Positions 12,277-57,171 of a stretch of 64,000 nucleotides of DNA are shown in pieces. The stretch spans positions 336,486 through 400,485 of the forward strand of contig CAVQDB010000004.1 of the NCBI GenBank assembly GCA_963711155.1. The letters are read 5' to 3'. The notes under the pieces were generated by a model. The model was not told the origin of the DNA and did not search any database. It worked only from the letters and a program-made list of their open reading frames with translations. The number at the start of each line of letters is the position of its first letter. The stretch's first letter is position 1. This stretch comes from an uncultured Armatimonadetes bacterium. GTDB lineage: Bacteria; Armatimonadota; UBA5829. Position numbers and translations under genes: made by a program.

Positions 12277-12309
12277 TCGACCCGCCTCGGGTGGTCGAAC
12301 GACCTCTCC

Positions 12310-26788: not shown

Positions 26789-27380
26789 CTACGACTTGCC
26801 GGCAGTCGCCCCGATCCGGTCCTGGTATGCGGCCATGAAGCCCGCCTTGAGCTTGTCCTCAAGGCTCGTCTTCGTGTCGTCCACGTCAAGCGGCCGCACA
26901 CCGGCGTCGGTTCGAAGCTGCTTGTCGCCGCCCTTCGAGTCGGCCTTGGACTTGTTGGCGTCGTCGCCGTCTTTGTCTGTCGCTCGCCCTTTTCAGGGCA
27001 GCCGGGCTTTCGCTGAGATAGCCCGATCATAGGTTGCCTCGGCGGCGGCGAATGCGTCGTCGGAGAGGCCGGCGAGCCGGCTGAGTTCCTTCTCGCGCTC
27101 CTCGTCCGAAGCGAACGTCATGCCGCCCTTCTCAAGCTTCTGTATCAGCTTCTGGGCACGAGCCTTGTTCGCGGCAGCCTTGCTCTGCGCCTCAAGTTCT
27201 TGAACTGTGCTTCTGCAGATCCGGCGACCTGCTGCTTGAGCTGCTTGTTCTCGTCCTCAAGCTCCTTTATGCGGGCCTTGTCGTCCGCGGGCGGCAGCGC
27301 CTCCGCCGCCCGGAGCGTCCTTTCTTGGCAGCATCCTCGTGCTGCTCGTCTGTCGCTGTCTCTCGTCTTCCACTGGATGT
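26789..27380 (-). CDS. Scaffolding protein (coiled-coil); several apparent frameshifts or an in-frame stop; boundaries approximate
   Basis: Reconstruction: ...LPPADDKARIKELEDENKQLKQQVAGSAEAQFKNL / EAQSKAAANKARAQKLIQKLEKGGMTFASDEEREKELSRLAGLSDDAFAAAEATYDRAISAK... / ...DKDGDDANKSKADSKGGDKQLRTDAGVRPLDVDDTKTSLEDKLKAGFMAAYQDRIGATAGKS. Confidence 0.5.
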
Positions 27381-27975
27381 CCTCCTGAAGATGTCTGGGT
27401 TGCCTGCTGCGAGGCGACCTGGGTTATCCGTGCGTTCTCGTCGGCGCCTTTGCGGTCCAGAAGACCAAGCCCGGTGAACGTGACGCCGTGCAGGATCTCG
27501 AACACCGGCTTGCCCTGGAACTCGCCGCCCTTGTACTTGCGGAGATGGGTGCAGTAGTCGTTCTTGGAGGCGACGGTCTTGCCGCAGATGGAGCACTCGC
27601 CCATCTCGTAGTCGCACTCCATCGAGACCTGGCTGATGATGCCGCGCTTCATGAGCTTGTAGGCAAGAGCCGCCGCCGGCGCTTCAGCCACATAGAGCTC
27701 GCCCACGCACTCGACGCGCCCGCCGGTCTCGTCCTCGATGAACTCGGAGTTGATGATCCCGCCGACGATATCCGTCAGGTCCTGCGAGTGCTTGAGGTCG
27801 ATCTTCTTGTTGATCGCCGTGGTGTAGCGAGCCGCCAGCTCGTCGGCGGTGAAGTGGTCGCCGTTCTTGTTCGTGCCCGCGCGGCACATTATGAAGCTGA
27901 ACTGCGGCTCGCCCGCATTCGGGTTCAGATCGAGAGCGGAAGCGGAAAGCCCGTCGCCCTCGGCTATAGCTCACC
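27380..27975 (-). CDS. Putative prohead (capsid maturation) protease; start unresolved
   Basis: ...ALDLNPNAGEPQFSFIMCRAGTNKNGDHFTADELAARYTTAINKKIDLKHSQDLTDIVGGI...QVSMECDYEMGECSICGKTVASKNDYCTHLRKYKGGEF.... The NKNGD.F...EL...D..H pattern and the position before the scaffold suggest an XkdF-like prohead protease. Confidence 0.45.
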
Positions 27976-29164
27976 TCGACCGGGATGGACGTGTGGCAGT
28001 TGGCCGGCAGCGCAGCCGCAGCGGCCTTGGGCGCACCCTTGCCATTCGAGGCGACGAAGAGCAATTCGCGGCCGTGCTTGCCCTCGCTCTCCTTGCCGAG
28101 GACAATGCCATACTCGACATCCATCCCCCGGACGCGCACGTTGCCGAAGCGCTGCGAGAAGATGTCGCGGATCTCGTTTCGGTCGGGAATGCCTTGTCGC
28201 GGTAGGAGAGAATGACGGTCCCGTACTTGCCGCGGGCCTCCGACGCCAGGTTCTCTATGAGCGAGCGGATGCTGTCGCGGTCGTAGTGGGTCCGCGACTT
28301 GTAGCTGCGGCGGTTGTCGCTGAGCAGCTCCTTGTCCGCCCAGCGGTTCATCAAGCCCCTCGACGAAGTGCAGCGAATACTCGTAGTCGTTGTTCGAGAA
28401 CTGGGTGATGTAGGGCGGGTCGAGATACAGCACATCCCCGCCGAACTTGCGCACCGCCTCGACCGCGTCGCCGTGGAACGCCTTGCACTCCTGGCCGTTG
28501 TCGAAGACCAGCTTGTTGAGCTGGCTCGCATATCGCTTGAAGCTCTCGACCATGCTGGAGACTGGGAATGCTGGTGAGCTGGCTTTCCTTGAATCCGCCG
28601 GCCTCTGTCTCAGTCGGCGTCAGCTCCATGTCGGCCTTGAGGTTGAGTCTTCGAGCGATGGAACTGGCCGTAGAGGCACTTGGCCTTCACGGTGTTGCCG
28701 AGCGCCGCGAGCGCCAGGTCTTTCTTGTAGCCGGGCAGCTTCTGGATATTCGCCCACACCTGATCGAGCCACGCGAGCACCTTCTTGGTGTAGTAGTAGC
28801 CGTGGAAGTTGTCGACGATGAACGTGCCGGCGTCGGCGTTGGGCGCGAGGATCTTCTCGATATCCTCGTCGGTCAGAGTCTCGTGGGAGTTCTCGACCAC
28901 GGCCCGGGCGATGTGATAGGGATAGAGCAGCAGGTCGTTCGCGATGACTTTCAGGCCCTTGCGCTTGAAGTGGTAGGCGACGTTCGCGCCACCGGAGAAC
29001 GCATCGACGATGGTCTTCGCCTCTTTCGGCACCTGCCGCTCGATCCAGCCGAGCATCATGTATTTGTTGCCCATGAAGCCGGTGACGCGGACCGGGTCCT
29101 CGCCGGCCTGGCAGCTCAGAAGCTCCAGTTCGTCGGCAAGAGGCGCATCCGCCAGGGCCTGCAT
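27976..29164 (-). CDS. DNA N6-adenine methyltransferase, D12/Dam-like class, copy B; about 3 apparent frameshifts
   Basis: ATG 29164 follows GAGGAGAAC. MQALADAP...VTGFMGNKYMMLGWIERQVPKEAKTIVDAFSGGANVAYHFKRKGLKVIANDLL... then ...DVLYLDPPYITQFSNNDYEYSLHFVEGL... and ...GTVILSYRDK...ELLFVASNG. The motif order is YxGxK, DxFxGxxxV, DPPY. Confidence 0.7.
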
Positions 29165-30357
29165 GTTCTCCTCGATGCGCAGGGTCACTTCCGGTGAATG
29201 GCCGTCCTCATCTGCCTGAGCAGACTTGCCGCCCTTGGTGCAGACGAACAGCCGCTCTATGGCAACCGAGTTCTCGCAATGCTTCGCGGAAATGCGATAC
29301 TGGTGCTCCTGCGACTGCATCCGGCTGGACATGCCGTTTGCCGAGATGATGTCTTTCATCTCCCCCTCGTTCGGGTAGGCGTGGTCGCGGTAGGAGATGA
29401 GCCAGTTCGGGATGTGCTTCGCGTTGGCGAGGAACGTGCCGAAGAACTCGCCGGCGTTCGCCTTGGTGACCGTCTTGTGGTCGGTCTCGTAGTGGTGGGT
29501 CTTGGAGTCCGCCACGATCTTCAGCCCGTCCCAGTAGGTCATCAGGCCTTCGACGAAGTGATAGGCCTTCTCGTAGTTGGTCGTCGAGAACTCGGTCGCG
29601 TAGGGCGGGTCGAAGTAGGCGAGGTCCACCTTGGCATCGGCCAGCAGCGTCGTTCATGTCCTTGCAGGTCGCCTTGCACTCCTTGCCGTTGTCGAAGACG
29701 AGCGCGTTGATGCGCGCGACGTTGTTCGCGAACCGCTCCTTGAACTCGTCGGGGGTGTCCTGCCGCTTGCCGTAATCGGTCGAAGAGGAGAAGTGGCCGA
29801 AGCCGCCTTTGCCGGACATGCACGTCTTGCCGAGGGCGAAGAGCGCGATGTCCTTCTTGAACCCGGAGAGCGCGTCGACGTTCGCGCGGATGGTGTCGAT
29901 GACCTTGTGGACGCCGTCGGCGAAGAAGAGGCCCTTGAAGTTGTCCCGGACGAACGTGCCGGCCTTGGGGTTGTCGGCAAGCAGCGCGTCGAGTTCCTCC
30001 TGGGCTGATGCGAACGCTGCCGTTCTCGATGATGGCCCGGGCGGCGTGGTGGGAGTAGTGCAGCCGGTCGTTGGCGACGACGCGCAGGCCCTTGGTCTTG
30101 TACATATACGCGACGACCGCCGAGCCGCAGAACGCGTCAAGCACGCTCGCGACTCCCTCCGGCGTGTGCTTCCAGATCCAGTCAACGAGCTTCTGCTTCG
30201 AGCCTATGTAGTTGGTGATGTATTTCGGACGCTCATCCGGCGGCAGTTCCTCGGTGACAAGCTCCGCGCCCTGGGCGATAAGGTCTTCCAGGTAGCAGGA
30301 AGCATCCGTCTCCAGCAGGAACGCCAGCCGATCAAGGTCCGTGGCGAAAAGCTCCAT
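29165..30357 (-). CDS. DNA N6-adenine methyltransferase, D12/Dam-like class, copy A; about 2 apparent frameshifts; no in-frame stop before copy B
   Basis: MELFATDLDRLAFLLE...PKYITNYIGSKQKLVDWIWKHTPEGVASVLDAFCGSAVVAYMYKTKGLRVVANDRL... then ...FDNGKECKA... and DLAYFDPPYATEFSTTNYEKAYHFVEGL...WLISYRDHAYP...IERLFVCTKGG. Confidence 0.7.
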
Positions 30358-30398
30358 CCATCTCTCCGGCTGCAGGGGCCAATGCAGACTGGCTCTTC

Positions 30399-30434
30399 CA
30401 ATGGTTACTTACCGGAGGAAATCAGGAAGTGTAG
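30399..30434 (-). promoter_or_regulatory. Copy B of the conserved promoter-like motif
   Basis: Minus strand reads CTACACTT-N13-GGTAAGTAACCATTG. It lies 41 nt upstream of the methyltransferase A start codon. Confidence 0.55.
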
Positions 30435-30576
30435 AGGGCACCATTGAGTGCGTGAGGGCCGACCATGGAGTCCTAGCCTCATCCATTCCGCATGTCCATG
30501 TCACGCGTGTGTTTGACAGAAGGCAGTTGCTGGCTGAAATTCTCTACCATTCAGCCTTGGATAACAGGGGGAGTAT

Positions 30577-31209
30577 GTGAGCGTTGATATCGCATCAAGA
30601 ATAGTGCAGCTTATCAAGCTTCCTTTCAGGCATCTGTGGATCATCGCTATCGCGTCCGGTGTGCTCCTGTTCTCGCCAGCGAGGATGCTACACAGATTGA
30701 GAATGGCTGAGTTCGTCGGCGCATATGGCACTTGGGTCGCTGTGGTGTTTCTGCTGTCTGCAGTATCGATTCTCGTGAACTCATTTCACTGGGCTTGGCA
30801 AGCCCGCGCCCGTAGTTCTAAGCGGGCTAGTTTCGAGTTCGGACGGCTGCCGGTCCCTCTCAGGAGGTTGTCGCATCAGGAGAAGGGTGTCCTGCGGGAG
30901 TTCTTCATACAGGGGCAAAATACTTTGCGGCTACCGATTGATAATCCGGCCGTCACGGGCCTTCTGCGAAACGGCATTTTGGTTCAGCTCGATAGCCTCT
31001 GTGAGGGTTCCCTCGCGGGGCTCCTGGCACCGGTGTCTATTGCTGATGGGCTCTCAGACTTATTGGTGGCCAGCCACATTGATCTTCCTTGTGAGCCCGT
31101 CTCCGATGCCGACAGGGACTATGTGCTGAACAATCGTCCGGACTTTCTGCCAGAGATCGAGCATCATAACGAGATCTTCCACACGTCGTGGCGCCGGTCG
31201 ACGTTCTAG
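30577..31209 (+). CDS. SieB-like superinfection-exclusion membrane protein (by resemblance)
   Basis: GTG start after GGGGGAG. There are two N-terminal TM helices (HLWIIAIASGVLLF, WVAVVFLLSAVSILV), then LSHQEKGVLREFFIQGQNTLRLPIDNPAVTGLLRNGILV, which matches my recollection of the SieB family (PF14163) core. Upstream, TTGACA (30513-30518) plus N16 plus TGAAAT forms a promoter-like pair. The region is low in GC. Confidence 0.45.
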   Translation: MSVDIASRIVQLIKLPFRHLWIIAIASGVLLFSPARMLHRLRMAEFVGAYGTWVAVVFLLSAVSILVNSFHWAWQARARSSKRASFEFGRLPVPLRRLSHQEKGVLREFFIQGQNTLRLPIDNPAVTGLLRNGILVQLDSLCEGSLAGLLAPVSIADGLSDLLVASHIDLPCEPVSDADRDYVLNNRPDFLPEIEHHNEIFHTSWRRSTF

Positions 31210-31294
31210 CTGATTCGATTAGAAGCCGCTTAGTCGTGGCAAACCACGTGAGCGGATCTGGTTACGCCCTATTTGCTAAGATGAGAGATCTGAC

Positions 31295-32451
31295 ATGCTT
31301 TTCTGTGCAAGCGAACGCAGAATGATAGTGTTACGTGTGCCAAATCCCAGAGCATACCGACGGGGTCGGCTGGCTCTCTTTGTCACACTGACCCTTCTGA
31401 CAGTCTTGATGTGTGTGCCTAATGTTGAGGCAAGAAATCTGGGTTCGCACGTGGTAACCGACGTTATTGATGGAATGACACTATGCGTTCAGGCCTCGGC
31501 CAAGTCAGACTCATTGGTGTGAGGTCCCCTGCTCAGAGCGACGATATCAGAATGCCAGAGTCTGTGCTCAACAGAGCAGGATCGGTCTTGCAGGTACTGG
31601 CAGTGAAAAGAACTGTAATCGTTGAGACTGACATTCGAGAGAGAGACAACGAAGGGTGTCTACTGGCATACGTATGGCTCGATGATGGTTCATTGCTCAA
31701 TGCTGTCGTGATTAGATCAGGTTATGCGATTGCGATCCCGTGTCCACCCAACATCAAGTATGGATCCAAGCTGCAGAGAATGCAGATTGATGCCATAGAC
31801 CACGGGAGGGGAATATGGGAAGAACCACCGGCTTTGCTGTCCAATCGACCGTTCTGGCCCGTCTTGCCTAAGTCGTGGATGGTGACTATTCCGCTGCTTG
31901 CCGTATCACTGTTGTTGCTGATCAGGACCTATGAACTGATTGGCACGTTGTTGTGGCTTGCATGCAAGAGCAAGACATGCAAAGTGGACTATGACGGGTA
32001 CATCAGAGATTTGCGACTCCAGATGCAGATAGCAAACCAGCCTGTCACTACAAGTGGCGTGCCTACATTTCGTGAGGGGCTGAGAGAAGTTCAGAGGTGG
32101 GCAGGTCGCAGGATTCAGGAACTTGATGCGCGTTACCGTCGACCTGAATCTCGAGTAATGAGATTTGTGAAGAGGACCTGTGGGCAAGCTGGCGCCAATA
32201 TGGCGTATAGGTGGCTTAACTTGATGCTTCTCACAGCAATGCTTGCAGCACTTGTCTCGGACGATTCCGTGATGACGGCGTCGGTGGTGTTCCTGGCTAT
32301 GTTTGCATTTGCTACAGGCGGTCTAGTTCAGATCGCCCATCTGATCGCTTCCCGAATGGTACAGATTCGACCACGCTCGCGACAAAGCCAATGCAGCCAA
32401 TATGTCAGTGCAGATGGGGCTTCCTCCCGAGATGGGAGAAGCGACCGCTAG
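31295..32451 (+). CDS. Exported SNase-fold (thermonuclease-like) domain with degenerate catalytic residues, followed by a multi-TM region; 1 apparent frameshift near 31490
   Basis: Signal-peptide-like N-terminus (RRGRLALFVTLTLLTVLMCVPNVEA). SNase core: HVVTDVIDGMTLCVQ / GLGQVRLIGVRSPAQ...NEGCLLAYVWLDDGSLLNAVVIRSGYAIA...GRGIWE. Compared with staphylococcal nuclease, IDGDT becomes IDGMT, VDTPE becomes VRSPA, and YGRGLAY becomes EGCLLAY. Hydrophobic helices then follow (WMVTIPLLAVSLLLL, LNLMLLTAMLAAL, VVFLAMFAFATGGL). Confidence 0.6.
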
Positions 32452-32773
32452 ACGAAAGGATGTGGTTAGTGAGTTCGTTACGGTGTTCCTCGTCACGTTT
32501 GGAGTCTTGGTTCTAGGCTATGGAGGCATATACGCCGGCCTTAGCAAGGTAGGCATAGGTGGAAGTGCATTTCACGGACTGGCAATCGACCAGAGTCCGT
32601 TTGCTCAGTTGTTGTACTTCAGTATCGTCACGATTGCCACTCTGGGATACGGTGACATCGCACCGTCAAGCTTCTTGGCTAGGCTAGCAGTGTCCTCAGA
32701 AGTCCTGTGCAGCTTCGCGCTAATAGTCTTGCTTGTCGCAGTAGTCTCGTTGACCTCACAAACGGACGAATAG
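32402..32773 (+). CDS. Miniature 2-TM potassium channel pore protein (may be the frameshifted C-terminus of the previous ORF)
   Basis: TM1 FVTVFLVTFGVLVLGYGGIY, pore helix plus selectivity filter LLYFSIVTIATLGYGDIAP (TxGYGD), TM2 LAVSSEVLCSFALIVLLVAVVSL. Confidence 0.75.
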   Translation: MSVQMGLPPEMGEATARRKDVVSEFVTVFLVTFGVLVLGYGGIYAGLSKVGIGGSAFHGLAIDQSPFAQLLYFSIVTIATLGYGDIAPSSFLARLAVSSEVLCSFALIVLLVAVVSLTSQTDE

Positions 32774-32858: not shown

Positions 32859-33209
32859 TCAAGACTGCATTGATATGAGAAGTGTCGCGATAACTTGATA
32901 TATGCATTCCTTTGCCGTCGCGAACTCCTCCGTCTCCACAATCTCTCCTCGCATCCCACGATACGGCGACATCGTCGCCTGGTGATACTCCAGGAAATCC
33001 TCCGGCAGCGATTTGATGTCGTTCTCCACCAGCCGGTTGATGACCCAGTCCGCGTCTTCCTGGAACTCCTCATTGCCAGGCAGGTATTCCATCACGATAT
33101 CCAGCCCCGGCCCAGGACCTTGCACCCAGACGCCGATGGGCTCGTAGTGCGGGTTCGTGTCCCGGTCACGAAGCGCATACTCGATCATGTATCGCAGCTT
33201 CATTGCCAC
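32859..33209 (-). CDS. Hypothetical protein (candidate immunity/accessory to the MuF polyvalent protein)
   Basis: Intact 116-aa acidic ORF (MAMKLRYMIEYALRDRDTNPHYEPIGVWVQGPGPGLDIVMEYLPGNEEFQED...). It overlaps the end of the upstream gene. Confidence 0.45.
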   Translation of the reverse strand: MAMKLRYMIEYALRDRDTNPHYEPIGVWVQGPGPGLDIVMEYLPGNEEFQEDADWVINRLVENDIKSLPEDFLEYHQATMSPYRGMRGEIVETEEFATAKECIYQVIATLLISMQS

Positions 33210-33677
33210 GCCTCCGCGATGCTCGCGTGCTCCTCAAGAAGCTGCGCGTCGATCTGCTCGAACATCGCCTTGTTCTCGGCTTTGTATGCCTGCCAGTCTT
33301 TCCAGTCGGCGCAGAGCGCGAGGTCCTGAGTCGGGAACAGCAGTTCCATGTGGTAGCGCCGGCCGAGGTCGTCTGTGAGGTCGAGAAGATATGTATCGTC
33401 CTGGCTCCAATCGACGACCTTGATAGTGTGGGCGTACTGCCAGCCGTTATTGTAGCCCGCCGACTTGAAGAGGAGCCAGAAATCAGTCTTGGTGACATTG
33501 CCCGCGGCATCGAAGTGCGGCGCGACGCGCGTGACAGTGTAGCTATCGATCAGCCCGAACTCAAGCGGTTCGTCAGTGCCTTCCCGCATCGTCCATCCAG
33601 GAGCCGTCCTCGTTGAATGGATCGAAGAGCGCCTGCAGCCTCGACTTTTCGCTCGCAATGAAATCCGCTATGCTCAT
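33200..33677 (-). CDS. Hypothetical protein (candidate immunity/accessory); 1 apparent frameshift near 33590
   Basis: MSIADFIASEKSRLQALFDPFNEDGSWMD / ...REGTDEPLEFGLIDSYTVTRVAPHFDAAGNVTKTDFWLLFKSAGYNNGWQYAHTIKVVDWSQDDTYLLDL.... Its ATG forms an ATGA overlap with the stop of the giant upstream gene. Confidence 0.45.
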
Positions 33678-36600
33678 CTGTCTATCACTATCTCCTCGAT
33701 TCTGCGCCCATCCGGCAATACTGATATGCCGTGTTTCCTGAACACCGCAAGGACCTTCTCTCGCTCGGTCTGACCCCGGACGACGATGCACTCCAGGTTG
33801 TCCAGCAGCGTGACGGAGTACTTGAGGATGGTCTCATTGCTGGAGTTGCGGGAGAATGCTCTTCCACGTCCCGGGTCGGCCCCACGGTTTTGAGAGACGA
33901 AGTCGTCCTTCACTTTGCCGTAGCAGTCGTGGTTATAGCTTATCGCGTCCATCCGTCGCAGAAGCTGCTTCTTGAAGTAGAGCCCGGGTTCACCCGAGGA
34001 TGCCGTGGGTAGCTTCTTGATGCGGGTGAAGACGTAGGTCGCCCCGCCGCTGTTCATGTCCTCCGCAGGGGACATGCCACCCGGCGTTATCCCAGCTCGA
34101 AGCTTCTCGACCGTGCTTATCATCGCTCCGTTGTCTCCAAGCGCCGTGTCAAGGAACGAGCTTACGCTTTCGCCGTTCGTGAGATGGTGATGCAGGCCGT
34201 AGCCTTTCATCTCGCGCTCCAGATCGGCGTCCGAGATGTCGAAGCGGTATTGCTGCCGATAGCCTCCCGCGATCTTGCTGTCCTTGAACCCCCGCTGATA
34301 CTCGCCTATTGGATCATAGCCAGGCAGTCTTCGTGATGTCAGTAACACCCAGCCGCTTCTCCCAGTACCGATCGCATCGCTTGAACCTGCTCGGCCTTGG
34401 AGGCGTTCCTGGCGTCGAGGTCGGAGATCATCTTCGTGTACTCCGGCTCACGGTCGGTCTTGGCGATATAGGCCGCCTTGCCAAGATACATCAGTTCAGA
34501 GTCCTCGGCAGTCGAAACTGTGGCATTCACTCCAAGCTCTGTCGATATGCTCAAGCGCCTTGTCGAGGGTCTTCGGGTCTGGACGATCTGGCAGAACAAG
34601 CTCGAACTCGCCCTGCTGCGCATAATGGTTCTTGTCCGACCACGGTCTATACACGGCGGTGATGCCGTCGCCAAAGTCGATTTCATACTGCTCACCGTCG
34701 CGCATCGACCGGCCCTTGAACAGCGCGGTGTTGTCCGCACCCTCTTTCTCGACCGCGAGTTCGCCCTTGCTGATCGTCCGCTTGGTCATCAACACCTTGG
34801 ACTTGCGGACGGTGAAGTCCAGTTCCTTAGCTTTGCTCTTGGGCGACGGGTATCTCTTCAGATACGCTTCGAAGACGCCGGATATCCGTTGGCGCTCCTG
34901 TGCCGCCTGCTGAACCTTTTCGATCCATCCGATGTAGTTCGCTGCCATCTCTCGCACGTCAGGATCATCGGACTTCGCGAGCTTGCGCAGCGCCTCCAGG
35001 TGCTTCGCAGCCTTGTCGATGTGTGGCCTGGTTGTAGCCTCCATCCTGAGCATGGTGGTTGATCGTCTTCACCGCCGCGAGGATATCGCCAGAGAAGCTG
35101 TCTTCCGACAAGGGCTGGCCGACCTTGGGGACGGTGGTCTGGCGGTCGGCTTTCCTGAGCTGCGGCAGGATCTTCGGCTCAGCCTCCGGCCGGATCTTCA
35201 TCTTGATCACCGTGCGCTGCTGCCCGTTGATGGTCTCGGTGAAGATGAGCGCATTCTGGTCCTCGATGTCGCTCTCATCGATTGGCAGAGTCTTTCCCTG
35301 CCAGCCCAGCCGCCGCACGTCTTCCAGCAGATCTTCCTCGGCCTTACCGATTCTGCCTTTGACCGGCGCCTCGACCACGTCCTCGAACCTGAACCCCGGC
35401 TTGCCTAGGACATCGGCGTAGAACCCCTCGAAGTCCGTGCGCAGGCTGTGCTTGCGCGCAAGCGCCAGTTCGTAGAAACGCCTTTCTCTTTGCCTCGCTG
35501 CTGCCGAACCTGCCCTCCGACATACGGCCGTATCAGCGCGAGGTAGTCATCGTCGGATATCCGCTCGACCTCGCGGATGTAGCGCAGCGTGACGGACGGA
35601 TCGACCGCCACCTTGCCCTGCTTCGCGGCGCGAAAGAGCGTGTTGTAGAACGGCTCACTCTCGCCGCAGACGCCGTTGGGATGGTAATCGATGGAGAGCT
35701 TGTCCTCTCCCAGGAACTTGAAGAGCTGGCCCTTGTCGATGCCGTAGACCTTGCCGTCCTTGGCGCGCAGGAACTGCTTGGAGTGCCCATCGTGGTTGGA
35801 GATGAGCCAGTCAATCACGTGCTCGCGCTGAACCTGCGCGATCTCGTCGCGCTGAGAGTTCGGTGACGTCGATAGCTGAGAAGTCGTGTTCCTTGGCGAG
35901 ACCGGTCTTCGCCACTTCTGGATCGAGCCCGTGCGGCCGTTGAGGCGGATCGTTCTGACTTCGATGGCATCCGGATCGATCAGCCTGCCAATCTTGTAGG
36001 CGGCCTCCTCGCCATGCGCGATGAACTCATCCGACGCTTTGCCGCGGCTTGAAGAGCCACTTGTCGCCGTTCTCGTCCAGCCAGAACTCCTTCTCGTGCG
36101 CGCCGCCGACATTGGCTTTGCCGTCATACTTGAACTTCTCAGGCTTGCCATGCTCTGCCCAGGCCGCATCGACGGCGTCGAACTCCGATCCCTTCTTCGC
36201 GAATGTGTTCGGGGACGCGGATGTGACTGGCTGTGAGAGTGGCTGTGGCTCTGTCGGCTTGGCTGTTGGGCTGGGCAGCTTTGCCCGGCGTCGCGAGATG
36301 CTTCTCGGCCCACTTGGCGTGCTTCGCCTCGATACTCGCCTGCGCCGCCGACACCTTCGTCGGATCAGTCTCCGTGAACAGGGTAGTCAGTTCGTCTTTC
36401 GATGCCCACTGCCAGTGCTTGACCTTGGTCTGCTTCGCAAGGTCCTTGAGCTCGCCCGACTTCATCGCCGCGACCTGCTGCTGGAACGTGTGCTTCTTGA
36501 GCGCGATCTCCTTGGCGTGTTCCTGGAGCACCGACGCCGGCAGCCCGGAGTCCTTTGCGAGTTCCGCTTCGGCAGCCTTTACTGAATCGAGGAACGATGA

Positions 36601-38260
36601 GTACTGCGTCGGGAGAGGACGGCATTACTATCTGCGATGTGGCGTCCTTGAGAGCTTGCTCGGCTTTCTTCAGCGCCTCTTGCTTCGCCGCATCGAGGGC
36701 CTGCTGCTTGGCTTGGTCAGCCATCTGCTGGCCGGCCGCTTTCTCCAGAGCCTTGGCGAGCTGCTCCTTGTTCTTGAGCGGAGGAATGCCGTACTTCTGC
36801 TTCGCGGCGATCAGGGTCTTGCCGGAGTAGTTGTAATGGTCTATGTGCGGCTCAAGACCGTCCAGCATCTCGATGACTTCAGACTTGGTGAGGTTCAGTG
36901 ACACGCCGTGCTGCTTGGCCATGTCCTTGAGCTGGACCATAGTCAAGCTGGAGAGGTCGGTCTGAGGGGCGGCGTTCTTCGCGGCCTCTTCCAGTGCCTT
37001 GGCCTGCTTGATCACCGCCTGCTTCTCGGCAAGGAGTAGGCCAGTTCGTCCTTGCTTCGCAGCGCTGCGATGTTGTACTGCTTGATCTTTGCCTGGAGCG
37101 CTTTGCCAGCCAGATCGCCGTGGTGGATTCCAGGTTCTGCCAGGTCGAGGAGCTTGATGAAGTCGGACTTCGTGCGGGCGACGGCTATGCCGTTCTGCTT
37201 CGCGAGTGTTTGAAGCTGCTTGACGGTGAGAGTGCCGAGGTCCGCGATCTGCCCGGACTCGAATGCGCCTTTGAGCTTCTTCTCTTCTTCGGCTTTCTGT
37301 TGTGCCTGTAGTTCAGTCGCCTGGGGAGGAAGGATACAGGCGCTCTGGCCAGGCGCAGCGGTCGCGCCGAGATCACCGCCACAAATGACCAGCGGCCATG
37401 CGACCACGCTGGTGCACCGGCAGTTGGGATGCGCGGGCTGGCTGGGGAAGCGGTCGGTGTCGAAGACCTTGCCATCGAAGCCGCCGCAGACCGGGCACAT
37501 CCGCTCGTCTTCCATCGCCACCCATTCGAGTTTCTGCACGCCGACCTGCTGGTGGAACTTGATGCGGCCCTGGTTGTGAGCGCGCAGGACCTCGGTGCGG
37601 GCGATCATCTCCATCCGGTACTGCGCCTTGGTGAACACCTTGCCGCCAGCGTTGCGGAACGACTCCTTGTCCTCGATCACCGTCCCGAGGTCGCGCACGA
37701 TGTCCTCGACACCCTTGCCCGTGGCGATACCAGACAGGATCGTGCGCTTGATGCCGGCCTCAAGCTCACGATGCACGTCGCCCGCGAGCACCAGGTTGTA
37801 GTTGGCCATGAAGTCGAGCGCGTCGGTGTCGATGAGCGTGAACGCCGATGGTCGTGAGCTTGTCGATCCCGTCCGGCGTGAGATCACGGTAGAACGGCAT
37901 CTGCGCAGTCGCGAACTCCTCGATCCCTCGATAGACACCCTTGCGGAAAGCCGCCCGCGAACTGCTGCGGAACATCAGGGTCTGGTCCTTGCGCAGTGTC
38001 CTCATCGCGTCCCGGATCTCGGCGTCGAGCTTCTCCAGGCCCTTCAGCGCCGCGAGCTTGTTGTCGGGAAGCGAACCGAGGCTCTTGTAGTTAAGCAGCG
38101 CCTTGTGAACCTGTTCCTGCGCGGACTTGAGGGACTGCGTGAGCTGATGCGCGACCTGCTCCGAATAGAGGTCGCGGGCAAGCAGGCTCTTCAGTGTGGC
38201 TTCGCGGATTGCCTGAGCCTGAGAGGTCGTGTCGGCGATGGCGCACATCGGTGCCTGCAT
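33674..38260 (-). CDS. Giant MuF-domain polyvalent virion protein (~1500 aa): MuF/SPP1-gp7 head-morphogenesis domain, HeH/SAP-like repeats, kinase-like domain and unknown C-terminal domains; at least 10 apparent frameshifts
   Basis: At least 9 consecutive track ORFs (37766..38260, 37012..37938, 36365..37015, 36139..36531, 35405..36313, 34965..35378, 34496..35053, 34339..34740, 33674..34348) each become sensible where the previous one degenerates. I found no convincing internal start or stop signal between them. The MuF signature is ...YRMEMIARTEVLRAHNQGRIKF...WVAMEDERMCPVCGGFDGKVF...PAHPNCRC. Confidence 0.65.
35430..36200 (-). other. Atypical kinase-like domain (PI3/4-kinase / HipA-like catalytic-loop pattern) inside the polyvalent protein
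   Basis: My own translation of the minus strand at 36041-36120 gives KANVGGAHEKEFWLDENGDKWLFKP. Downstream lie HVIDWLISNHDGHSKQFLRAKDGKVYGIDKGQLFKF (D-x-H-x-K-Q ... IDKG). This is a motif-level resemblance only. Confidence 0.35.
36370..37270 (-). repeat. Array of HeH/SAP/Rho-N-like helix-extension-helix repeats (coding)
   Basis: LTVKQLQTLAKQNGIAVARTKSDFIKLLD; LAGKALQAKIKQYNIAALRSKDELAYLL; LTMVQLKDMAKQHGVSLNLTKSEVIEMLDGL; GKTLIAAKQKYGIPPLKNKEQLAKAL; GELKDLAKQTKVKHWQWASKDELTTLF. Confidence 0.6.
37330..38260 (-). other. MuF / SPP1 gp7 head-morphogenesis domain of the polyvalent protein
   Basis: HPNCRC motif, ARTE...A.N.G motif, and position immediately after the portal gene. Confidence 0.8.
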
Positions 38261-38271: not shown

Positions 38272-39856
38272 TCAGACTCTCTTGTGTTCAAAGAAGCGGC
38301 AGGCGGGGGAGTCGAACGTGGTCTCGGCCTGCGTGACGCCGCACTTGTTCTGCTCGTCACCGAAGAAGCCGCACGAGTCGCACATTTCGATCGCGTAGTG
38401 CAGCGCCGCCTGTGCTTGAGCCGGCTTGTTCTTTGCCGGATCGAGGCCGAGCATCTCCTGCGCGGCTTCGATGCCCATGATCCCGGCCACGACCATATCG
38501 ACAATCGGCTTGACCTGCTTCTCGTCCAGCAGGTCCACGGACTTGCCCTCGCTGCGCCGATGCGCTTCCTCCACATCCGGGTCGAGGTCCATCTTGAGCT
38601 GCAGGCTTGAGCGGCTTATGAGCTTGCGGTCGTATAGCTCGATCAGGAGCTTCTTGAAGTCCACCGCGTCCGTGGGATCGAGGTCGTTGAAGACGAACTG
38701 CACGCTCTTGTCCTGGTGCCCGGACATCTCCAGCCAGTCGGCGAATATCCAGTCGAGGATCGTCCGTCGCCGCGTGCTTTATCTCCCGGATCATGATGAG
38801 CATCTTCTGCATACTCACCGACGCCGTTGCGAAGTTTGGGCCGTCGCCGGCGACGAGTGAGCGCGAAAGACCCAGCGCGACGACGATGTCTTCCTTGACC
38901 TCCCGCACTTTCTCCTCGACGTTGAGGACCTGCCCCTCGGTGCCGTGGGTCTCGACCGTCACGTAGAACGGCACGACCAGGCCGCTCTTGAGGTCCATCT
39001 TGTTGACCATGTCGCGGACCTGTTCGAGCATCTTCTGGTCGGGCATCACCATCTTCTGCCCGTATGCCCCGCCGACTTTGAGGAGCCGGAACGGTGTCGC
39101 CCAGCGCTTCGCGATGGCCTTCTCCGCGCGGCGATAGTCCCGCAGAAGCTCGATGGACTCGAACGCCGGCAGGACCAGGGAGTTACCGCGAGGAGAGAAC
39201 GATGGGGCATCCCACTTGAGGTGCAGAGTCTGCTCGACCGGCAGCTTCAGACCGTCGCCTGTGGCCGGGCTGTCTTCGGGGAATTGCTGCACCTCGACGA
39301 GCTGGCCTTGGGCATACTTCACCTTGATCGAGACCGGGTTCACGCACGTGACTTCCTCGATGTCCTTGCCGTCCTTGGTGTATCGTTTGAACCCGACCGC
39401 GTCGCCCTTGACGAGCAGTTGGAGGATCATGTCCTTCACGAACTCGGAAACATCGAGCCGGTCGGCAAGATCGTTCGCCTCCTCCTTCACGGTGTCATCG
39501 TCGCTGGTGATCTTGATCTCGTCGCCCACCGCGAACGTGCGCCAGGAGTTGATGCAGTTCTTGACCAGCGGCTCCTCGACATAGTACTCCCAGGCTTTCT
39601 TCGCCCGGTCTTCCCAGGTCTTCGGGATCGCGCACTCGTCGGCATGGAGCTTCGCAAAGGTCGACGAGTCCAGCATAGCCGCAGTAGCCAGCGGCGCGAC
39701 GATGATGCCCTGCGCTTCGTTCGCGGCGGTGTCGACAACGCCAGCCGATCTGTTTGCAGTTCTCCTTGGACGGGGCTTTCGACTCTCGCTCTCCACGCTG
39801 ACCTCGATCCTTACGGGGTCGGAGCGCGCACGCGGCGATGTGGCCGCGAGATGCAC
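38272..39856 (-). CDS. Portal protein; 1 apparent frameshift near 38760; start uncertain (alternative ATG at 39676)
   Basis: ...WEDRAKKAWEYYVEEPLVKNCINSWRTFAVGDEIKI...LHLKWDAPSFSPRGNSLVLPAFESIELLRDYRRAEKAIAKRWATPFRLLKVGG...FATASVSMQKMLIMIREIKHAAT / ILDWIFADWLEMSGHQDKSVQFVFNDLD.... The gene order is terL, portal, MuF. The C-terminus carries a Cys cluster, CDSCGFFGDEQNKCGV...PACRFF. Confidence 0.8.
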
Positions 39857-40409: not shown

Positions 40410-40724
40410 ATGAAAGACCCGATGGAGTATCAGGGAGTATTAGGGCAGGCAATCGTGGCAAGGCGGGAGAAGCTCGGCTACAGCCGCGATAAGCTCGCCA
40501 GGATCATCGGAGTAGACACGGACTATGTGGCCTTTGTGGAAGACGGCAAGAACGATCTGGAGCTTTCCGAGATGATCGTCATAGCCAGAGCATTGCGCAT
40601 TCCACTATCGACGCTTCTTGCGGTTGCGGAGTCGGGGCTGCCGGAGAACATAGCGAACGCCGATCAGAAGAAAATCGGGTCCGTCAGCACCGGCATCACG
40701 CAGACCGTCTCCTCGCTCACCTGA
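40410..40724 (+). CDS. XRE-family helix-turn-helix regulator
   Basis: LGQAIVARREKLGYSRDKLARIIGVDTDYVAFVEDGKNDLELSEMIVIARALRIPLSTLL is a classic HTH_3 pattern. Its 3' end converges on and overlaps the terL 3' end. Confidence 0.8.
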   Translation: MKDPMEYQGVLGQAIVARREKLGYSRDKLARIIGVDTDYVAFVEDGKNDLELSEMIVIARALRIPLSTLLAVAESGLPENIANADQKKIGSVSTGITQTVSSLT

Positions 40725-42196
40725 TCGAGGCTTCGCTGCTCCCGCACGAGCATCGCGCAGCGGACGGCGTCGATGATGTGGTCGTTGCCTTTGGAGTAGA
40801 TCACGTTGCCGTTCGAGAGCGTGTAGGTGTGGGTCGTGAACTGGTCTTCTATCTCCAGGTCGTCAGAGGGCAGTATCATCTGCCTGCGCTGCAGAGCGCC
40901 ATTGATGAGGCTGGTCATCAGTTCCTTGGTGCGCTTCTTCACCTCCTGGCCTTCACGCACCGCAAGAGTCGTCATGCCGCCGAAGTCGTAGCCGTGCAGC
41001 CGGCCTTCGAGTTGCAGCAGCTTGTACTTGTCGAGCGTCAGGAGTTCCTGCACGACCGCAAGACCGTTCCCGCCGTTGTCCACGCCAATCCCGACCGGCG
41101 TGAAGTACCTCTCCAGCAGGGATATGACTTGGGCGATGTGTGGATAGGACACGTGCTCCAGATGGATGCGCAGGACAAGCTTCACGACCGAGCGATCCCC
41201 GACCTCTATCTCCTGGAACACGACGATCTCCGTCGGGTCGTTCGTGTAGCCCAGGTCGCCGCCTATCCAGAACATGCCGACCTGCGGCATCAGGTTCAGG
41301 AGCATCTCCAGCCGGTCGTATGACTCCTCCTCGGTCTCGCAGTCGCGCAGTTCCTCGCCGGTTATCGTGACCTTCTGATACTCCAGCAGCTCCTGGCGGC
41401 ACAGGTTCAGATGCTCGATGTTGAATGCGCCATAGGAGGGCTTGCCGTGTTCGCCGGCGACCTCGTGCTGCCAGCCGGAAGTGTCACGTCCCCCATAGAA
41501 CTCCAGAAGCTCGCTCTCACGATGATCGGTCCAGTTCGGATTGAGCCACGAGGGCCACCTGAACACTTTGAACTGCGAGGACAGAGTGAGCCGGTAGTAG
41601 GTCGTGTTCCGCAGGCCGTTGGGCGTGGAGTAGATGCGCAGCTTGCCGCCAGCCTTGAGGCACTGCCGCAGCGCCTTCCACGCCTTCTCCGTGAGCCACG
41701 CGCCCTCGTCCACCCAGACGCGATCAACGTGCAGCGACCGAAAAGCGTCGCCGTAGGCTCCGGCAGGTCGGAAGTAGAGGATAGCGCCGTTGGTGAACTC
41801 CACCCGGAAGTAGGGCTTGCGGTGGATCTTGACCTTCCCGTACTTCGTGATAGCGACGCTGGCCATTAGATCGGGATTGGAATCGAGCTGGAACTCCATC
41901 TCCTCGATAAGCGTGTCCAGATGTCCCTGGTGCGGAGCGGCGATAAGCCCCTGTCCTCCGCGAGTCGTGAAGGCAAAGTGCATCGCGTCAGTGGTAAGCA
42001 CGATGCTCTTGCCGACATCGCGGCCGTCGAGGTGGACGATGTTCTTGCTGTCGCAGTGCATGTCCTCGACCTGGTGCGGCCAGTACGATCGGTCGGAACC
42101 GTCCCGGTTGCGCAGATAGGTCTGACCCCACATCACCGGGTCCTGCAGGGAAAGCGCGATCCGCATCTCCTCGGAAGTGACGTTGCTCACTGACAT
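40664..42196 (-). CDS. Terminase large subunit
   Basis: MSVSNVTSEEMRIALSLQDPVMWGQTYLRNRDGSDRSYWPHQVEDMHCDSKNIVHLDGRDVGKSIVL (Walker A-like) ...HVDRVWVDEGAWL (Walker B-like) ...FWIGGDLGYTNDPTEIVV...GIGVDNGGNG... (RNaseH-like nuclease). The ORF is intact. The track ORF extends to 42769, but the upstream part is low-complexity nonsense. Confidence 0.9.
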   Translation of the reverse strand: MSVSNVTSEEMRIALSLQDPVMWGQTYLRNRDGSDRSYWPHQVEDMHCDSKNIVHLDGRDVGKSIVLTTDAMHFAFTTRGGQGLIAAPHQGHLDTLIEEMEFQLDSNPDLMASVAITKYGKVKIHRKPYFRVEFTNGAILYFRPAGAYGDAFRSLHVDRVWVDEGAWLTEKAWKALRQCLKAGGKLRIYSTPNGLRNTTYYRLTLSSQFKVFRWPSWLNPNWTDHRESELLEFYGGRDTSGWQHEVAGEHGKPSYGAFNIEHLNLCRQELLEYQKVTITGEELRDCETEEESYDRLEMLLNLMPQVGMFWIGGDLGYTNDPTEIVVFQEIEVGDRSVVKLVLRIHLEHVSYPHIAQVISLLERYFTPVGIGVDNGGNGLAVVQELLTLDKYKLLQLEGRLHGYDFGGMTTLAVREGQEVKKRTKELMTSLINGALQRRQMILPSDDLEIEDQFTTHTYTLSNGNVIYSKGNDHIIDAVRCAMLVREQRSLDQVSEETVCVMPVLTDPIFF

Positions 42197-42301
42197 GCGC
42201 CTCCGAACATTCTCTGCGAATAATGTGGCATTCGGCCTTGACTTTCTTGCCTGGTCCAAGCGTGAATGTGAATGCAAGACACAATCACTGGAGGTAGTGA
42301 A

Positions 42302-42655: not shown

Positions 42656-42736
42656 GGTGCAGGATGCCGGCGAACACACCGACGATCCGGCTGCTGCCGA
42701 GTAACGATCTCGCAGCAGTCGCTGGAAGCATTTGCC

Positions 42737-43600
42737 GTGAGGCTCCGAGCGCAGGGGCGCTCGGAGCACACGGTCTCTTCGTATCTCAGAGACCTGCGCC
42801 TGTTCGTGCGAGTCCTTAGCGACCAGTATCCCAGCGCGTCACTCCCCGATATCACGCCGGCGATGATAGACGCCGTGCTCACCGATCCATCAGTGACGCA
42901 CTCGCAGGATGGATCGCAGCGCTCGCCGGCGACAATGCATCGCTTCAAGGCGTCGGTCCGTTCGTTCTTTGCATGGGCAGTCGAGGCTGGTCTTGTGGAA
43001 TCCAATCCGGCGAAGTCGATCACCACGAAACGGCTAGCGCGCAGGCCCCCGGAGTTCCTGACCGAGGCCGAGAAGCGCAGGCTCCTCAAGGAGCTTCGCG
43101 ACAGGACGAATCCACTCGCCAAGCGCGACCGCATCATCTTCGAGCTGTTCCTCGGCACCGGCATTCGCCTCTCTGAACTAGTGAACCTGGACATCGACGA
43201 CGTCGACCTCGACGGCAAGCACATTCGCATCCTGGGCAAAGGCAGCATCCCGCAGGTGAAGTTCATCAAGTCGTCCCTGCGCACCGTGCTGCGAGCCTAC
43301 CTCGCTGACCGCCGGCGCACCGCCACTGGCGAATGCCCTGCGCTCTTCCTTTCCTCACGCGGAACACGATTATGCCAGCGGCAGATCGCGCTGCGACTCA
43401 CGCATTGGCTCGGCCGCGCCGGCATCGCCAGGAAGATCACCCCGCACGGCCTGCGGCACACATTCGCGACGCACCTCTACGCGAAGACCTCCGACCTGCT
43501 TCTGGTCAAGCGCGCCCTGGATCACCGCGACATCTCCACGACCGAAATCTACACACACCTCGCCGACGAGGCCCTCGAAGAAGCTATCGAGCGGCTCTAA
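42737..43600 (+). CDS. Tyrosine recombinase / integrase (XerC/D-like)
   Basis: LRAQGRSEHTVSSYLRDLRLF...GTGIRLSELVNLDIDDVDL...ITPHGLRHTFATHLY...LDHRDISTTEIYTHL supplies the R, H-x-x-R and H-Y catalytic residues. The true start may lie upstream (ATG 42664 in another frame). Confidence 0.9.
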   Translation: MRLRAQGRSEHTVSSYLRDLRLFVRVLSDQYPSASLPDITPAMIDAVLTDPSVTHSQDGSQRSPATMHRFKASVRSFFAWAVEAGLVESNPAKSITTKRLARRPPEFLTEAEKRRLLKELRDRTNPLAKRDRIIFELFLGTGIRLSELVNLDIDDVDLDGKHIRILGKGSIPQVKFIKSSLRTVLRAYLADRRRTATGECPALFLSSRGTRLCQRQIALRLTHWLGRAGIARKITPHGLRHTFATHLYAKTSDLLLVKRALDHRDISTTEIYTHLADEALEEAIERL

Positions 43601-51525: not shown

Positions 51526-51994
51526 ATGGCCGACTCTGTTGTGAAGCAGGTTGCGAGCCTGCCCAAACTCAAATACGAAGAGCTCAAGGCTATGTACGTG
51601 GCGCTCTACGGCAAGGAGCCTCCTGCCTACAATCGGGACCTGATCATCAAGCGTCTGGCCTATCGCCTGCAGGAGATTGCCTATGGCGGTCTGCCTGAGC
51701 GGGTGTTGCGCCGGCTTGATGAAGTGCTGGTCGAGAATGGCTATGACGAGAACGCGATGCCAATGGGCGTGTCCAAAGCGCAAGCGCAAAGTGATGAAAG
51801 ACCACCCGTGATCGGCACGGTGCTCGTGCGCGAGTGGCGCGGCGAGACGATATGAGGTCACCACCCTCCGAGATGGCTTTGAGTTTCAGGGGCGCAGGTA
51901 TCGCAGCCTCTCGGCTATTGCCGCCGCGATCACGGGTGCGCACCAGAGCGGTGTCGCGTTCTTCGGTCTGAAGCCTGCGAGGAGGAAGCAGTGA
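51526..51994 (+). CDS. DUF2924-family protein (recombinase-associated); 1 apparent frameshift near 51850
   Basis: RBS AAGGAGG. MADSVVKQVASLPKLKYEELKAMYVALYGKEPPAYNRDLIIKRLAYRLQEIAYGGLP...LVREWRGET / YEVTTLRDGFEFQGRRYRSLSAIAAAITGAHQSGVAFFGLKPARRKQ. A GTGA overlap joins it to the recombinase start. Confidence 0.7.
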
Positions 51995-56301: not shown

Positions 56302-57158
56302 TGGTAGGTAAGCTGGAAGCGGTTGTTTTCGATGTTGGACATGGTGCTTGTATCCTGATCCGAACACCGAACGAGCGAACAGTTTTGATCGATCCTGGAT
56401 GCACCGATAAGTTCAGCCCTTCGGATCATCTTTTCACCGAATGGAAGACGACAAGTGTCGACATGATGGTTGTGACTCATCCACACGGCGACCACATCAA
56501 CGACATGGTCAATGTGGACCTGTATATGCATGTCGATTCTCTTCTGCGGAACAAGACTATGCCAGAGAGCATGATCTGTTCCGGTGGCGACAAGGCACCT
56601 GAAGCCGACCGGACATACTTAGTGAAGTATCACCGGAAGTACACGAGTAAGCGCGACTGGCAGGTTTCGATGATGAACCCGGATTACAATGGGGGCGTGA
56701 CGGTTCTGTCTGGAACCCTGGACTATGATCCGCGAACCCCCCTGAGCGCCAATAATCTCAGTCAGGTGATCAGGTTTCGATATGGGTGCTTGGACCTTCT
56801 TTGTCCAGGGGACATTGAACCAGCGGGTGTTGCTTTGCTCGCTGAAAAAAGTCCCAAACTTCTGGCTGCCGATGACGCAGCCTTGGAGTATCGCGTGATG
56901 ATCGCTCCACATCATGGCAGAGACTCTGCCGCTTCATCTGATCTCATAAAGCTTTTCAATCCTCACCTGGCCGTAATTTGTGATGAACACGGTGTGAAGA
57001 CCACCAACGACGACTTCTACCGATATCACTGCACTGGCCTGAGAGTGTATCGGAAGAGCACAGACACTGTAGAAGAGAAGTGCGTGCTTACAACCAAAAC
57101 AAACGACTATGTCTACCTCAGGGCAGACGATCAAAACCTCCTCGTGCAGGTACCGTAG
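56301..57158 (+). CDS. MBL-fold metallo-hydrolase (ComEC/Rec2-related beta-lactamase-fold type)
   Basis: AVVFDVGHGACILIRTPNERTVLIDPG...MMVVTHPHGDHIND (HxHxDH) ...LLCPGDIE...MIAPHHGRDSA. The ORF is intact and ends 13 nt before hsdM. Confidence 0.8.
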   Translation: MVGKLEAVVFDVGHGACILIRTPNERTVLIDPGCTDKFSPSDHLFTEWKTTSVDMMVVTHPHGDHINDMVNVDLYMHVDSLLRNKTMPESMICSGGDKAPEADRTYLVKYHRKYTSKRDWQVSMMNPDYNGGVTVLSGTLDYDPRTPLSANNLSQVIRFRYGCLDLLCPGDIEPAGVALLAEKSPKLLAADDAALEYRVMIAPHHGRDSAASSDLIKLFNPHLAVICDEHGVKTTNDDFYRYHCTGLRVYRKSTDTVEEKCVLTTKTNDYVYLRADDQNLLVQVP

Positions 57159-57171
57159 CCAAGGAAGAGAT

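Follow-up and report, generated by a model that had tools for sequence, protein, structure and literature searches.

A giant MuF-family gene of an Armatimonadota prophage, read as intact, that probably encodes a polyvalent head protein with kinase-like and candidate ADP-ribosyltransferase domains

Head-packaged enzymes that are injected into the host act before phage gene expression, as do T4 Alt, P1 DarB and the N4 virion RNA polymerase; to our knowledge, few such enzymes have been studied. The closest described relatives of the gene analysed here are the polyvalent proteins, which are large, virion-associated proteins that combine MuF, DNA-binding and protein-modifying enzyme domains and are predicted to be injected together with the DNA (Iyer et al. 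2017, PMC5512222). The domain types listed there include MuF, Rho-N/SAP helix-extension-helix (HeH), protein kinase and ADP-ribosyltransferase (ART) domains. Fusions of MuF to ARTs or kinases are described there and in PMC9503650, from which head-packaged ARTs fused to MuF were already known. The present locus lies in a 64,000-nucleotide stretch of DNA (the window) from an uncultured Armatimonadetes bacterium (assembly GCA_963711155.1, contig CAVQDB010000004.1, positions 336,486 to 400,485), and all coordinates below count from the first letter of the window unless another locus is named. It consists of a giant MuF-family gene at 33674..38260 on the minus strand and two small genes, here called A and B, that follow it. 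We think it rather probable that the giant gene is one uninterrupted gene of a temperate myovirus prophage, that it looks frameshifted through assembly errors, and that it codes for a polyvalent, head-internal effector.

A first-pass annotation of this DNA had described one minus-strand reading track running from 38260 to 33674, directly after the portal gene. In the deposited sequence this interval holds no uninterrupted open reading frame (ORF). It is covered by eight minus-strand ORF pieces of 133-308 aa that occupy all three frames (37766-38260, 37012-37938, 36365-37015, 35405-36313, 34965-35378, 34496-35053, 34339-34740 and 33674-34348), and three-frame translation yields a sensible protein sequence that hops between frames. 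A search with the C-terminal 877 aa of the pieces, spliced by eye, returned 234 homologues. The best of these, P0001, is an uninterrupted protein of 1,524 aa encoded at 10001-14575 of a locus, L001, on a 62.8-kb metagenomic contig, and is 86% identical to the crude splice. Among the matches listed, 89 of 120 homologues are 1,480-1,560 aa long, and over 80 full-length homologues besides P0001 measure about 1,510-1,535 aa. Over the giant gene the window and L001 are 88% identical at the DNA level and differ by 14 insertions and 3 deletions, 17 indel events in all, which are 1-2 nt long and lie outside homopolymer runs; about 80% of the events are single-base insertions. Removal of these indels leaves 1,524 codons and a stop, with no internal stop, and a product with 92.7% amino acid identity to P0001. 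Correction and re-translation thus give a single long frame and not a set of unrelated split genes, so that the proposed track survives as one gene but not as one ORF. Its position directly after the portal gene was confirmed: the portal gene (38272-39856, minus strand) has a +1 insertion at 38768 and, once frame-corrected, stops at about 38272. The portal protein reaches its true C-terminus in another frame, where its last residues form a Cys-rich peptide, CDSCGFFGDEQNKCGVTQAETTFDSPACRFFEHK, possibly a zinc ribbon.

The corrected gene shows the substitution pattern of a gene under constraint. Its dN/dS relative to P0001 is 0.07, with a value below 0.1 for each domain, and the ratio of non-synonymous to synonymous substitutions (N/S) specific to the window's branch is 0.08-0.19, compared with 0.17-0.21 on the branch of the intact L001 gene (three outgroups). 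A gene that had long carried 17 frameshifts would have acquired near-neutral changes and stops; neither is seen, and we therefore reject decay. Because selection on the window's branch is not relaxed, we read the breaks as sequencing or assembly errors in what is one gene. Insertion-dominated indels are typical of long-read consensus error, whereas bacterial pseudogenes lean to deletions. The indels are unevenly spread, being heavy in the methyltransferase gene described below (about 20), light in those for the portal protein, integrase and primase, sparse in the type I restriction genes and absent from the 1.5-kb terminase gene; for this the single-base insertions in 24000-47000 of the window were compared with those in 40666-42200 and 57000-64000. 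A second copy of gene A, 62% identical, appears to lie on the window's own contig, and such a diverged second copy of the cassette would make mixed reads from repeated prophages a plausible cause of the indels. A cause linked to a methylation motif was considered and dropped, the insertion contexts having no motif in common.

The N-terminal part of the protein (residues are numbered on the corrected protein, which has the same numbering as P0001) contains a MuF domain and repeats of a DNA-binding type. The MuF/SPP1-gp7 domain, at aa 171-284 (37408..37749, minus strand), is recognised by Phage_Mu_F (PF04233) on the window's spliced translation with E 3.7e-17 and 63.5 bits against a cut-off of 29.6, and by TIGR01641 on P0001 with 61.9 bits against a cut-off of 39.65. 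The HPNCRC motif that the first-pass annotation had noted for this domain lies within it (37414-37431, minus strand). Five HeH (SAP/Rho-N-like) units follow at aa 341-377, 381-417, 436-472, 476-512 and 597-633 (36361..37239, minus strand) and share the pattern LxxxxL(K/Q)xhAKxxxhxxxxx(T/S)K(S/D)(E/D)hhxxL. The count of five had also been proposed before, and it was reproduced by a hidden Markov model (HMM) built from the window's own five units, which detects five units, no more and no fewer, in each of three independent homologues and places them at the same positions; in two homologues that are more distant, the second unit is marginal (E 0.05). The corresponding Pfam families fall just under threshold in the window (Rho_N, 23.1 bits against 24.9; SAP, 19 against 23.9), and both are recorded for several homologues. 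The giant protein thus resembles SPP1 gp7 and Mu gpF in its N-terminal domain, which scores above the curated cut-offs, in the HPNCRC motif and in the location of its gene directly after the portal gene. Proteins of that kind have lengths of about 300-500 aa, to which the giant protein adds about 1,200 residues of repeats and enzyme domains.

The HeH units are followed by a protein-kinase-like domain of the HipA/CtkA type at aa ~700-960 (35373..36161, minus strand). On the same strand lie its Gly loop GGAHEK (36090-36107), K737 (36048-36050), the catalytic loop DWLISNHDGH (35783-35812) and D840 (35735-35737). An AlphaFold2 (AF2) model of this segment of P0001, with a pLDDT of 89 and a pTM of 0.86, predicts a bilobal kinase fold. 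When the model was compared with the Protein Data Bank (PDB) using Foldseek, 753 matches were obtained at E<1e-3, almost all of them protein kinases. The top match, over the full length, is the Helicobacter pylori Ser/Thr kinase CtkA (3akk, 3akl; E 1e-6, TM 0.50-0.55), and further matches include CK2, RIO, VPS34 and a macrolide phosphotransferase. Seven positions are fixed across 90 non-redundant homologues that are 11-60% identical: G719 in the Gly loop, K737, D815, N820, D822, D840 and G842 (conservation 0.99 for G719, 1.0 for K737, 1.0 for D822 and 0.99 for D840). This set amounts to the minimal catalytic equipment of an active kinase, and the domain is therefore probably an active phosphotransferase that resembles HipA and CtkA and that, by the Pfam criterion, stands outside HipA_C.

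Alignment of the domain with Escherichia coli HipA by hhalign pairs EHVIDWLISNHDGHSKQF with FQVFQWLIGATDGHAKNF at a probability of 43-69%. It covers the catalytic loop and the C-lobe only, and places D822 opposite HipA residue D309, which we take to be the catalytic Asp. A weak match to TIGR03843 (the SCO1664 family) reaches 16.6 bits against 172. No Pfam match to the HipA N-terminal domain or to a HipB/HipS antitoxin was found in the giant protein, A or B, and the PI3/PI4 kinase family PF00454 does not match the spliced giant protein at E<=0.1. The earlier suggestion of a kinase-like domain, made by likening its motifs to loops of PI3/4-kinases and HipA, is consequently borne out by the confident AF2 model, the CtkA match and the HipA-like loop, but not by the PI3/PI4 profile, and the HipA_C cut-off is not reached. 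In common with HipA and CtkA the domain has a predicted kinase-like fold, the loop WLIxxxDGHxK(N/Q)F, a beta-3 Lys and a Mg-binding Asp. HipA differs in that the domain described here matches HipA_C below its cut-off, has no HipA N-terminal domain and no partner of the HipB/HipS type detectable from sequence, and is fused into a virion protein. CtkA, like the giant protein, also sits on a mobile element: its gene belongs to the conjugative element tfs3, and CtkA needs the type IV secretion system of that element to be active (PMC5536186). The kinase family of the polyvalent proteins in PMC5512222 is missing the C-terminal lobe altogether and conserves a Gln in the N-lobe's final strand. In the giant protein, compared with that family by its description only, a helical C-lobe is predicted and the Gln is not conserved in the wider family.

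Between the kinase-like and C-terminal domains lies a middle region (aa 963-1299; 34353..35366, minus strand; AF2 pLDDT 84), which is modelled as a small alpha/beta unit, a helical bundle, a beta-rich unit and three helices, in that order. The small alpha/beta unit carries the invariant motif GWQGK...DIEDQN. Nothing similar to the middle region was found in Pfam or, by sequence or Foldseek, in the PDB. Where two helical regions had been annotated, the model retains helical parts, but the region as a whole is of mixed alpha/beta and helical make-up.

The C-terminal domain (aa 1300-1524; 33677..34352, minus strand) is a candidate for an ADP-ribosyltransferase fold. Its top match among solved structures in Foldseek is Thermus DarT (7omy), a DNA ADP-ribosyltransferase, and the match is weak (E 0.075, probability 0.84, TM 0.42 over 223 columns). 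The predicted core has six strands in an order that fits the canonical ART arrangement. In 97 homologues with 31-54% identity to the window type, H1354 is conserved at 0.95, Y1405 at 0.99 and E1472 at 1.0 (34187-34189, 34034-34036 and 33833-33835, all minus strand); R1335, D1337, S1393, D1397, R1409, D1434, D1441 and R1455 are invariant as well. In the model, H1354 ends strand 1 (LxHxLT), Y1405 opens strand 2 (GGAxYxFTR) and E1472 opens strand 5 (NETI), a mapping of the H-Y-E residues that is based on motifs and predicted secondary structure and not on structural superposition. The latter two motifs compare with GxGxYFA and NEYI of PARP, respectively. We give about an even chance to this domain being an ADP-ribosyltransferase of the H-Y-E class, as the model suggests. 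It is like DarT and the H-Y-E ARTs in its best solved match and in its conserved H, Y and E at strands 1, 2 and 5. It differs from them in that the match is weak, in showing no sequence similarity to DarT, PARP or Pfam ARTs, and in having no macrodomain antitoxin at this locus. Phage T4 Alt, which belongs to another ART class (R-S-E), would be a functional analogue. A model of the middle region and C-terminal domain together, compared with viral predicted structures, gave weak matches to a ParB-like protein of phage CP-51 and to uncharacterised giant-virus proteins; matches of this model to Rio1 kinases were disregarded at a probability of about 0.1.

The giant gene is followed by two coupled small genes. 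The start codon of gene A (33200..33677, minus strand; ~158 aa) shares an ATGA with the stop of the giant gene (GACAGATGAGC, 33674-33677), and that of gene B (32859..33203, minus strand; ~114 aa) does the same with the stop of gene A (GGCAATGAAG, about 33200-33203). These overlaps are present as the first-pass annotation had reported them. The two products are acidic, with a pI of about 4.6 each. Gene A contains one +1 insertion, at 33594. Neither A nor B matches a family in Pfam, PHROGs or NCBIfam, the relatives of gene A in a search of 5.8 billion proteins are all annotated 'hypothetical', and in none of 267 homologues of the giant protein is A or B fused to it.

We analysed the conservation of A and B in L001 and 80 further fetched loci (L002-L081), across which the head module is syntenic. 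Gene A follows the giant gene in 68 of these 81 loci and gene B is found in 72, at 36-85% identity. Both also lie directly after the giant gene in two very different phage backgrounds, one (L084) with a Mu-type portal and a lambda-E-type capsid (A 1e-30, B 3e-27) and the other (L087) with an HK97-type capsid and a 3,181-aa giant protein (A 2e-52, B 1e-38); L086 has a weak B-like match. The two genes therefore track the giant gene across differing head modules, and the three genes travel as a cassette. By their conserved linkage A and B are true partners of the giant gene, in keeping with the first-pass reading of the layout as that of cognate genes; homologues follow it in nearly all close relatives.

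To assess how widespread the family is, a profile of the middle region and C-terminal domain was run with HMMER against 1.84 billion representative proteins, counting protein clusters at 50% identity. At E<=1e-3 it matched 1,623 clusters, and at E<=1e-30 it matched 532. Nearly every match is end-to-end and lies at the C-terminus of a protein of 1,000-3,181 aa, and many of these proteins have a detectable MuF domain. With self-built domain models the recurrent order is MuF, a variable stretch, kinase, middle region and C-terminal domain. After one iteration the kinase is found directly upstream of the middle region in 119 of 124 representatives, and the same C-terminal unit is present in all 120 homologues among the matches listed; the middle region always accompanies the C-terminal domain. 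Three variants depart from this plan: P0224 has an intein inserted in its MuF domain (aa 284-610), the 3,181-aa variant P0126 carries a DUF3626 domain (aa 401-517), and P0142 continues past the C-terminal domain into a very acidic, repetitive tail of 600 aa (aa 1180-1783).

Pseudanabaena phage Pan1 is the only cultured phage with the C-terminal domain. Its gp15, a 927-aa 'head morphogenesis protein', is made up of a MuF domain, the first unit of the middle region and the C-terminal domain, with the kinase absent, and the gene after it resembles neither A nor B. A and B may accordingly belong with the kinase or with the remainder of the middle region, and not with the C-terminal domain. A megablast of the region against 50,697 phage records gave no match, and the capsid protein is at most 30% identical to that of any cultured phage, so the phage group has no close cultured relative.

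With MuF and HeH domains, a kinase and a candidate ART, the giant protein combines at least two effector-type domains in a virion or late-gene context, which is how polyvalent proteins are recognised. It is like the proteins of PMC5512222 in being multidomain, in being encoded among virion genes and in joining MuF and HeH to a kinase and, probably, an ART. A fixed kinase-middle-C-terminal unit accompanied by a dedicated pair of small genes is absent from the text of that article, supplement aside. The first-pass annotation had suggested that the domain combination might be new; that suggestion has to be narrowed, because polyvalent proteins with kinase, ART, MuF and HeH domains were described in 2017 (PMC5512222). 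The present family seems to be uncharacterised, as does its C-terminal domain. The family is thus an uncharacterised variant of the known theme of polyvalent injected effectors and not a new kind of system.

By analogy with that theme, the N-terminal MuF/gp7 domain would recruit the giant protein into the procapsid at the portal, and the five HeH repeats would keep it on the packaged double-stranded DNA. The protein would leave the capsid together with the DNA at infection. Its two enzyme modules, a HipA/CtkA-like kinase of the Ser/Thr type and a C-terminal domain that would use NAD+ as an ADP-ribosyltransferase, might then modify host macromolecules in the first minutes, for host takeover or counter-defence. 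A and B could act as dedicated partners, most likely inhibitors or chaperones that keep the enzymes quiet or loadable in the producer cell. What the analysis shows is the integrity of the gene, its domain content, the predicted kinase fold with its conserved catalytic residues, and the conserved linkage of the three genes; packaging, ejection, the enzyme activities and their targets, and the roles of A and B are inferred.

Several results weigh against this effector reading of the giant protein. The structure models were built on the orthologue P0001 from shallow alignments of 23-25 sequences. The kinase segment falls below the Pfam HipA_C (PF07804) cut-off of 30.5 bits in the window (16.5) and in the homologues P0142 (23.7) and P0201 (22.0), and a profile search with it against PDB sequences gave chance matches only. 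For the C-terminal domain, Foldseek found nothing in the PDB at E<1e-3, and its assignment as an ART, which is drawn from where the motifs lie and from the weak match in fold (E 0.075, TM 0.42), is tentative. Ten diverse C-terminal domains had no Pfam match at E<=10, and 33 had none to the PADLOC defence-system models. Profile searches of PDB sequences with the whole protein, with the middle region and C-terminal domain, and with a deep C-terminal alignment gave chance matches only (an iota-carbonic anhydrase, de novo proteins and an integrase fragment), and hhalign of the C-terminal alignment against a PARP1 catalytic fragment gave a probability of 0.5%. The C-terminal domain of about 225 aa accordingly remains without a match in Pfam, PADLOC or PDB sequences, much as when it was first called unassignable. 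Pan1, finally, has the C-terminal domain without A or B, so the domain has no need of either gene.

Three other explanations of the giant gene have to be weighed against the reading as a polyvalent effector. Accessory anti-defence effectors are not usually conserved as strongly as this whole unit is, and such conservation would also fit a core structural or assembly role, in which the protein would be an internal head or ejection ('pilot') protein, its enzyme folds would act on the phage's own capsid proteins or DNA or would no longer be catalytic, and A and B would be small head or assembly proteins. The unit, A and B are as conserved as the portal, terminase and capsid genes in hosts of many phyla, the unit sits in the head module beside the gene for a 1,283-aa N6-adenine DNA methyltransferase, and DarT, the best fold match of the C-terminal domain, acts on DNA. 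Against this, the exact kinase catalytic residues and the H-Y-E set are invariant across divergent homologues, which argues for active enzymes; the nearest structural relative of the kinase is a translocated effector kinase, and the precedents for MuF fusions are injected effectors. We consider a core structural or assembly role unlikely. The other functional alternative is that of the MuF polymorphic toxins, a class reportedly described by Jamet et al. in 2017, in which the kinase and ART-like part would be a toxin against competitors or the host and A and B the cognate immunity proteins. HipA-family kinases and DarT are indeed toxins of toxin-antitoxin systems, and A and B are small, acidic, translationally coupled and co-inherited with the giant gene across phage lineages. 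Fusions of MuF to toxins with small immunity genes are an established theme, named in PMC5512222, and the giant gene has in common with them that its product starts with a MuF domain and ends with an enzyme or toxin-like domain and that small coupled genes follow it. What is missing is the polymorphism: the kinase-middle-C-terminal unit is constant across some 1,600 clusters, and the sequences of A and B are kept at 35-85% identity and not swapped along with a toxin, in contrast to downstream genes that vary with the C-terminal part, while Pan1 has the C-terminal domain without either. The toxin and immunity analogy drawn in the first-pass annotation therefore fails on the conserved C-terminal region, and we regard this explanation as distinctly improbable.

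The remaining alternative concerns the DNA itself, namely that the gene is a true pseudogene in a decaying prophage and that the frameshifts are biological. The giant gene, with 17 indels in 4.6 kb, and the methyltransferase gene have a far higher indel density than the terminase gene or the type I restriction genes, and the frameshift is present in the public assembly, where a truncated gene-A product is on record. However, there is no in-frame stop over 1,524 codons, dN/dS is low and N/S on the window's branch is no higher than that of the intact orthologue. The indel spectrum is insertion-heavy, opposite to the deletion bias of pseudogenes, and the apparent second, diverged copy of gene A on the same contig would favour consensus errors from mixed reads. 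A decaying gene is, on this evidence, highly improbable, and we retain the reading of the giant gene as an intact gene for a polyvalent head-internal effector.

The surroundings of the giant gene are those of a prophage that is, by its gene content, of the myovirus type. Over about 24.3-46.8 kb the window is collinear with L001 at 87-91% DNA identity. The gene order in L001 is terminase, portal, P0001, a 158-aa gene, a 113-aa gene, the gene for the 1,283-aa methyltransferase, scaffold and major capsid protein, and the order of terminase, portal, giant gene, scaffold and major capsid protein recurs in L001 and about 70 further loci. In the window the head module spans about 24-42 kb, and the integrase and primase genes about 42-47 kb, with the tyrosine integrase at ~42700-43600, collinear with 3164-4096 of L001. 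A tail sheath gene (21144-22991) and a baseplate J gene (5839-7245) lie further to the left. The methyltransferase gene is the second giant gene of the head module (~26800-30450, minus strand; 18190-22041 in L001) and has gene B on one side and the scaffold and capsid genes on the other. Its product begins with a D12-class N6-adenine DNA methyltransferase domain (E 2.5e-45) and recalls DarB of phage P1, which is packaged in the capsid.

The interval between gene B and the methyltransferase gene differs in content between L001 and other loci. In the window it holds an island of lower GC on the opposite strand (30577-32773), with plus-strand genes for a SieB superinfection exclusion protein (30577-31209), a staphylococcal-nuclease-like protein (31483-32451) and an ion-channel-like protein (32402-32773). 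A large serine recombinase gene (51991-53352) and the tyrosine integrase gene stand on either side of the replication region. Beyond them, on the plus strand, a type I restriction-modification system of host type is encoded by hsdM (57109-59190) and hsdR (59630-63587), the latter apparently as two ORFs split near 62270.

In a collection with one genome per species the head module was found at 144 loci in many phyla. Loci of 17.6 kb that are 96-97% identical at the DNA level occur in Ectothiorhodospira shaposhnikovii, Desulfosarcina alkanivorans, Desulfobulbus, Desulfofustis, Desulfocarbo, a Geobacteraceae metagenome-assembled genome (MAG) and a Verrucomicrobiota MAG, that is, in Gammaproteobacteria, Desulfobacterota and Verrucomicrobiota. 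A second clade, 90-97% identical, comprises Syntrophus buswellii, Anaerolinea, Zixibacteria, Phycisphaerae and Nitrospiraceae. Some of the genomes with near-identical loci are closed chromosomes of isolates, and a single Bryobacterales chromosome (OZ252029.1) carries four copies of the module (L018, L022, L023 and L028). As judged from these identities, the near-identical loci imply a very recent spread of the head module across phyla, unless some of the records are contaminated or mis-binned.

A further-reaching proposal is that the kinase-middle-C-terminal unit with A and B is a self-contained, hitherto unrecognised cassette of three genes for an injected effector that moves between unrelated head modules, that the C-terminal domain is a new clade of ARTs, that A and B are dedicated inhibitors, and that the cassette, together with the giant DNA methyltransferase, aids temperate myoviruses in becoming established in hosts of different phyla. 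Taken as a whole we hold this to be unlikely; were it true, the 96-97% identical copies in Gammaproteobacteria, Desulfobacterota and Verrucomicrobiota would be explained. For the family itself, read as polyvalent head-internal effectors, the finding concerns a large and strongly conserved group of proteins that are annotated merely as 'minor capsid protein'. With close relatives in cultured Desulfosarcina, Syntrophus, Ectothiorhodospira and Desulfofustis, and with the C-terminal domain in phage Pan1, the predictions can be tested directly. Were host defence or core machinery the target of the enzymes, this could partly account for the unusually wide distribution of this group of prophages.

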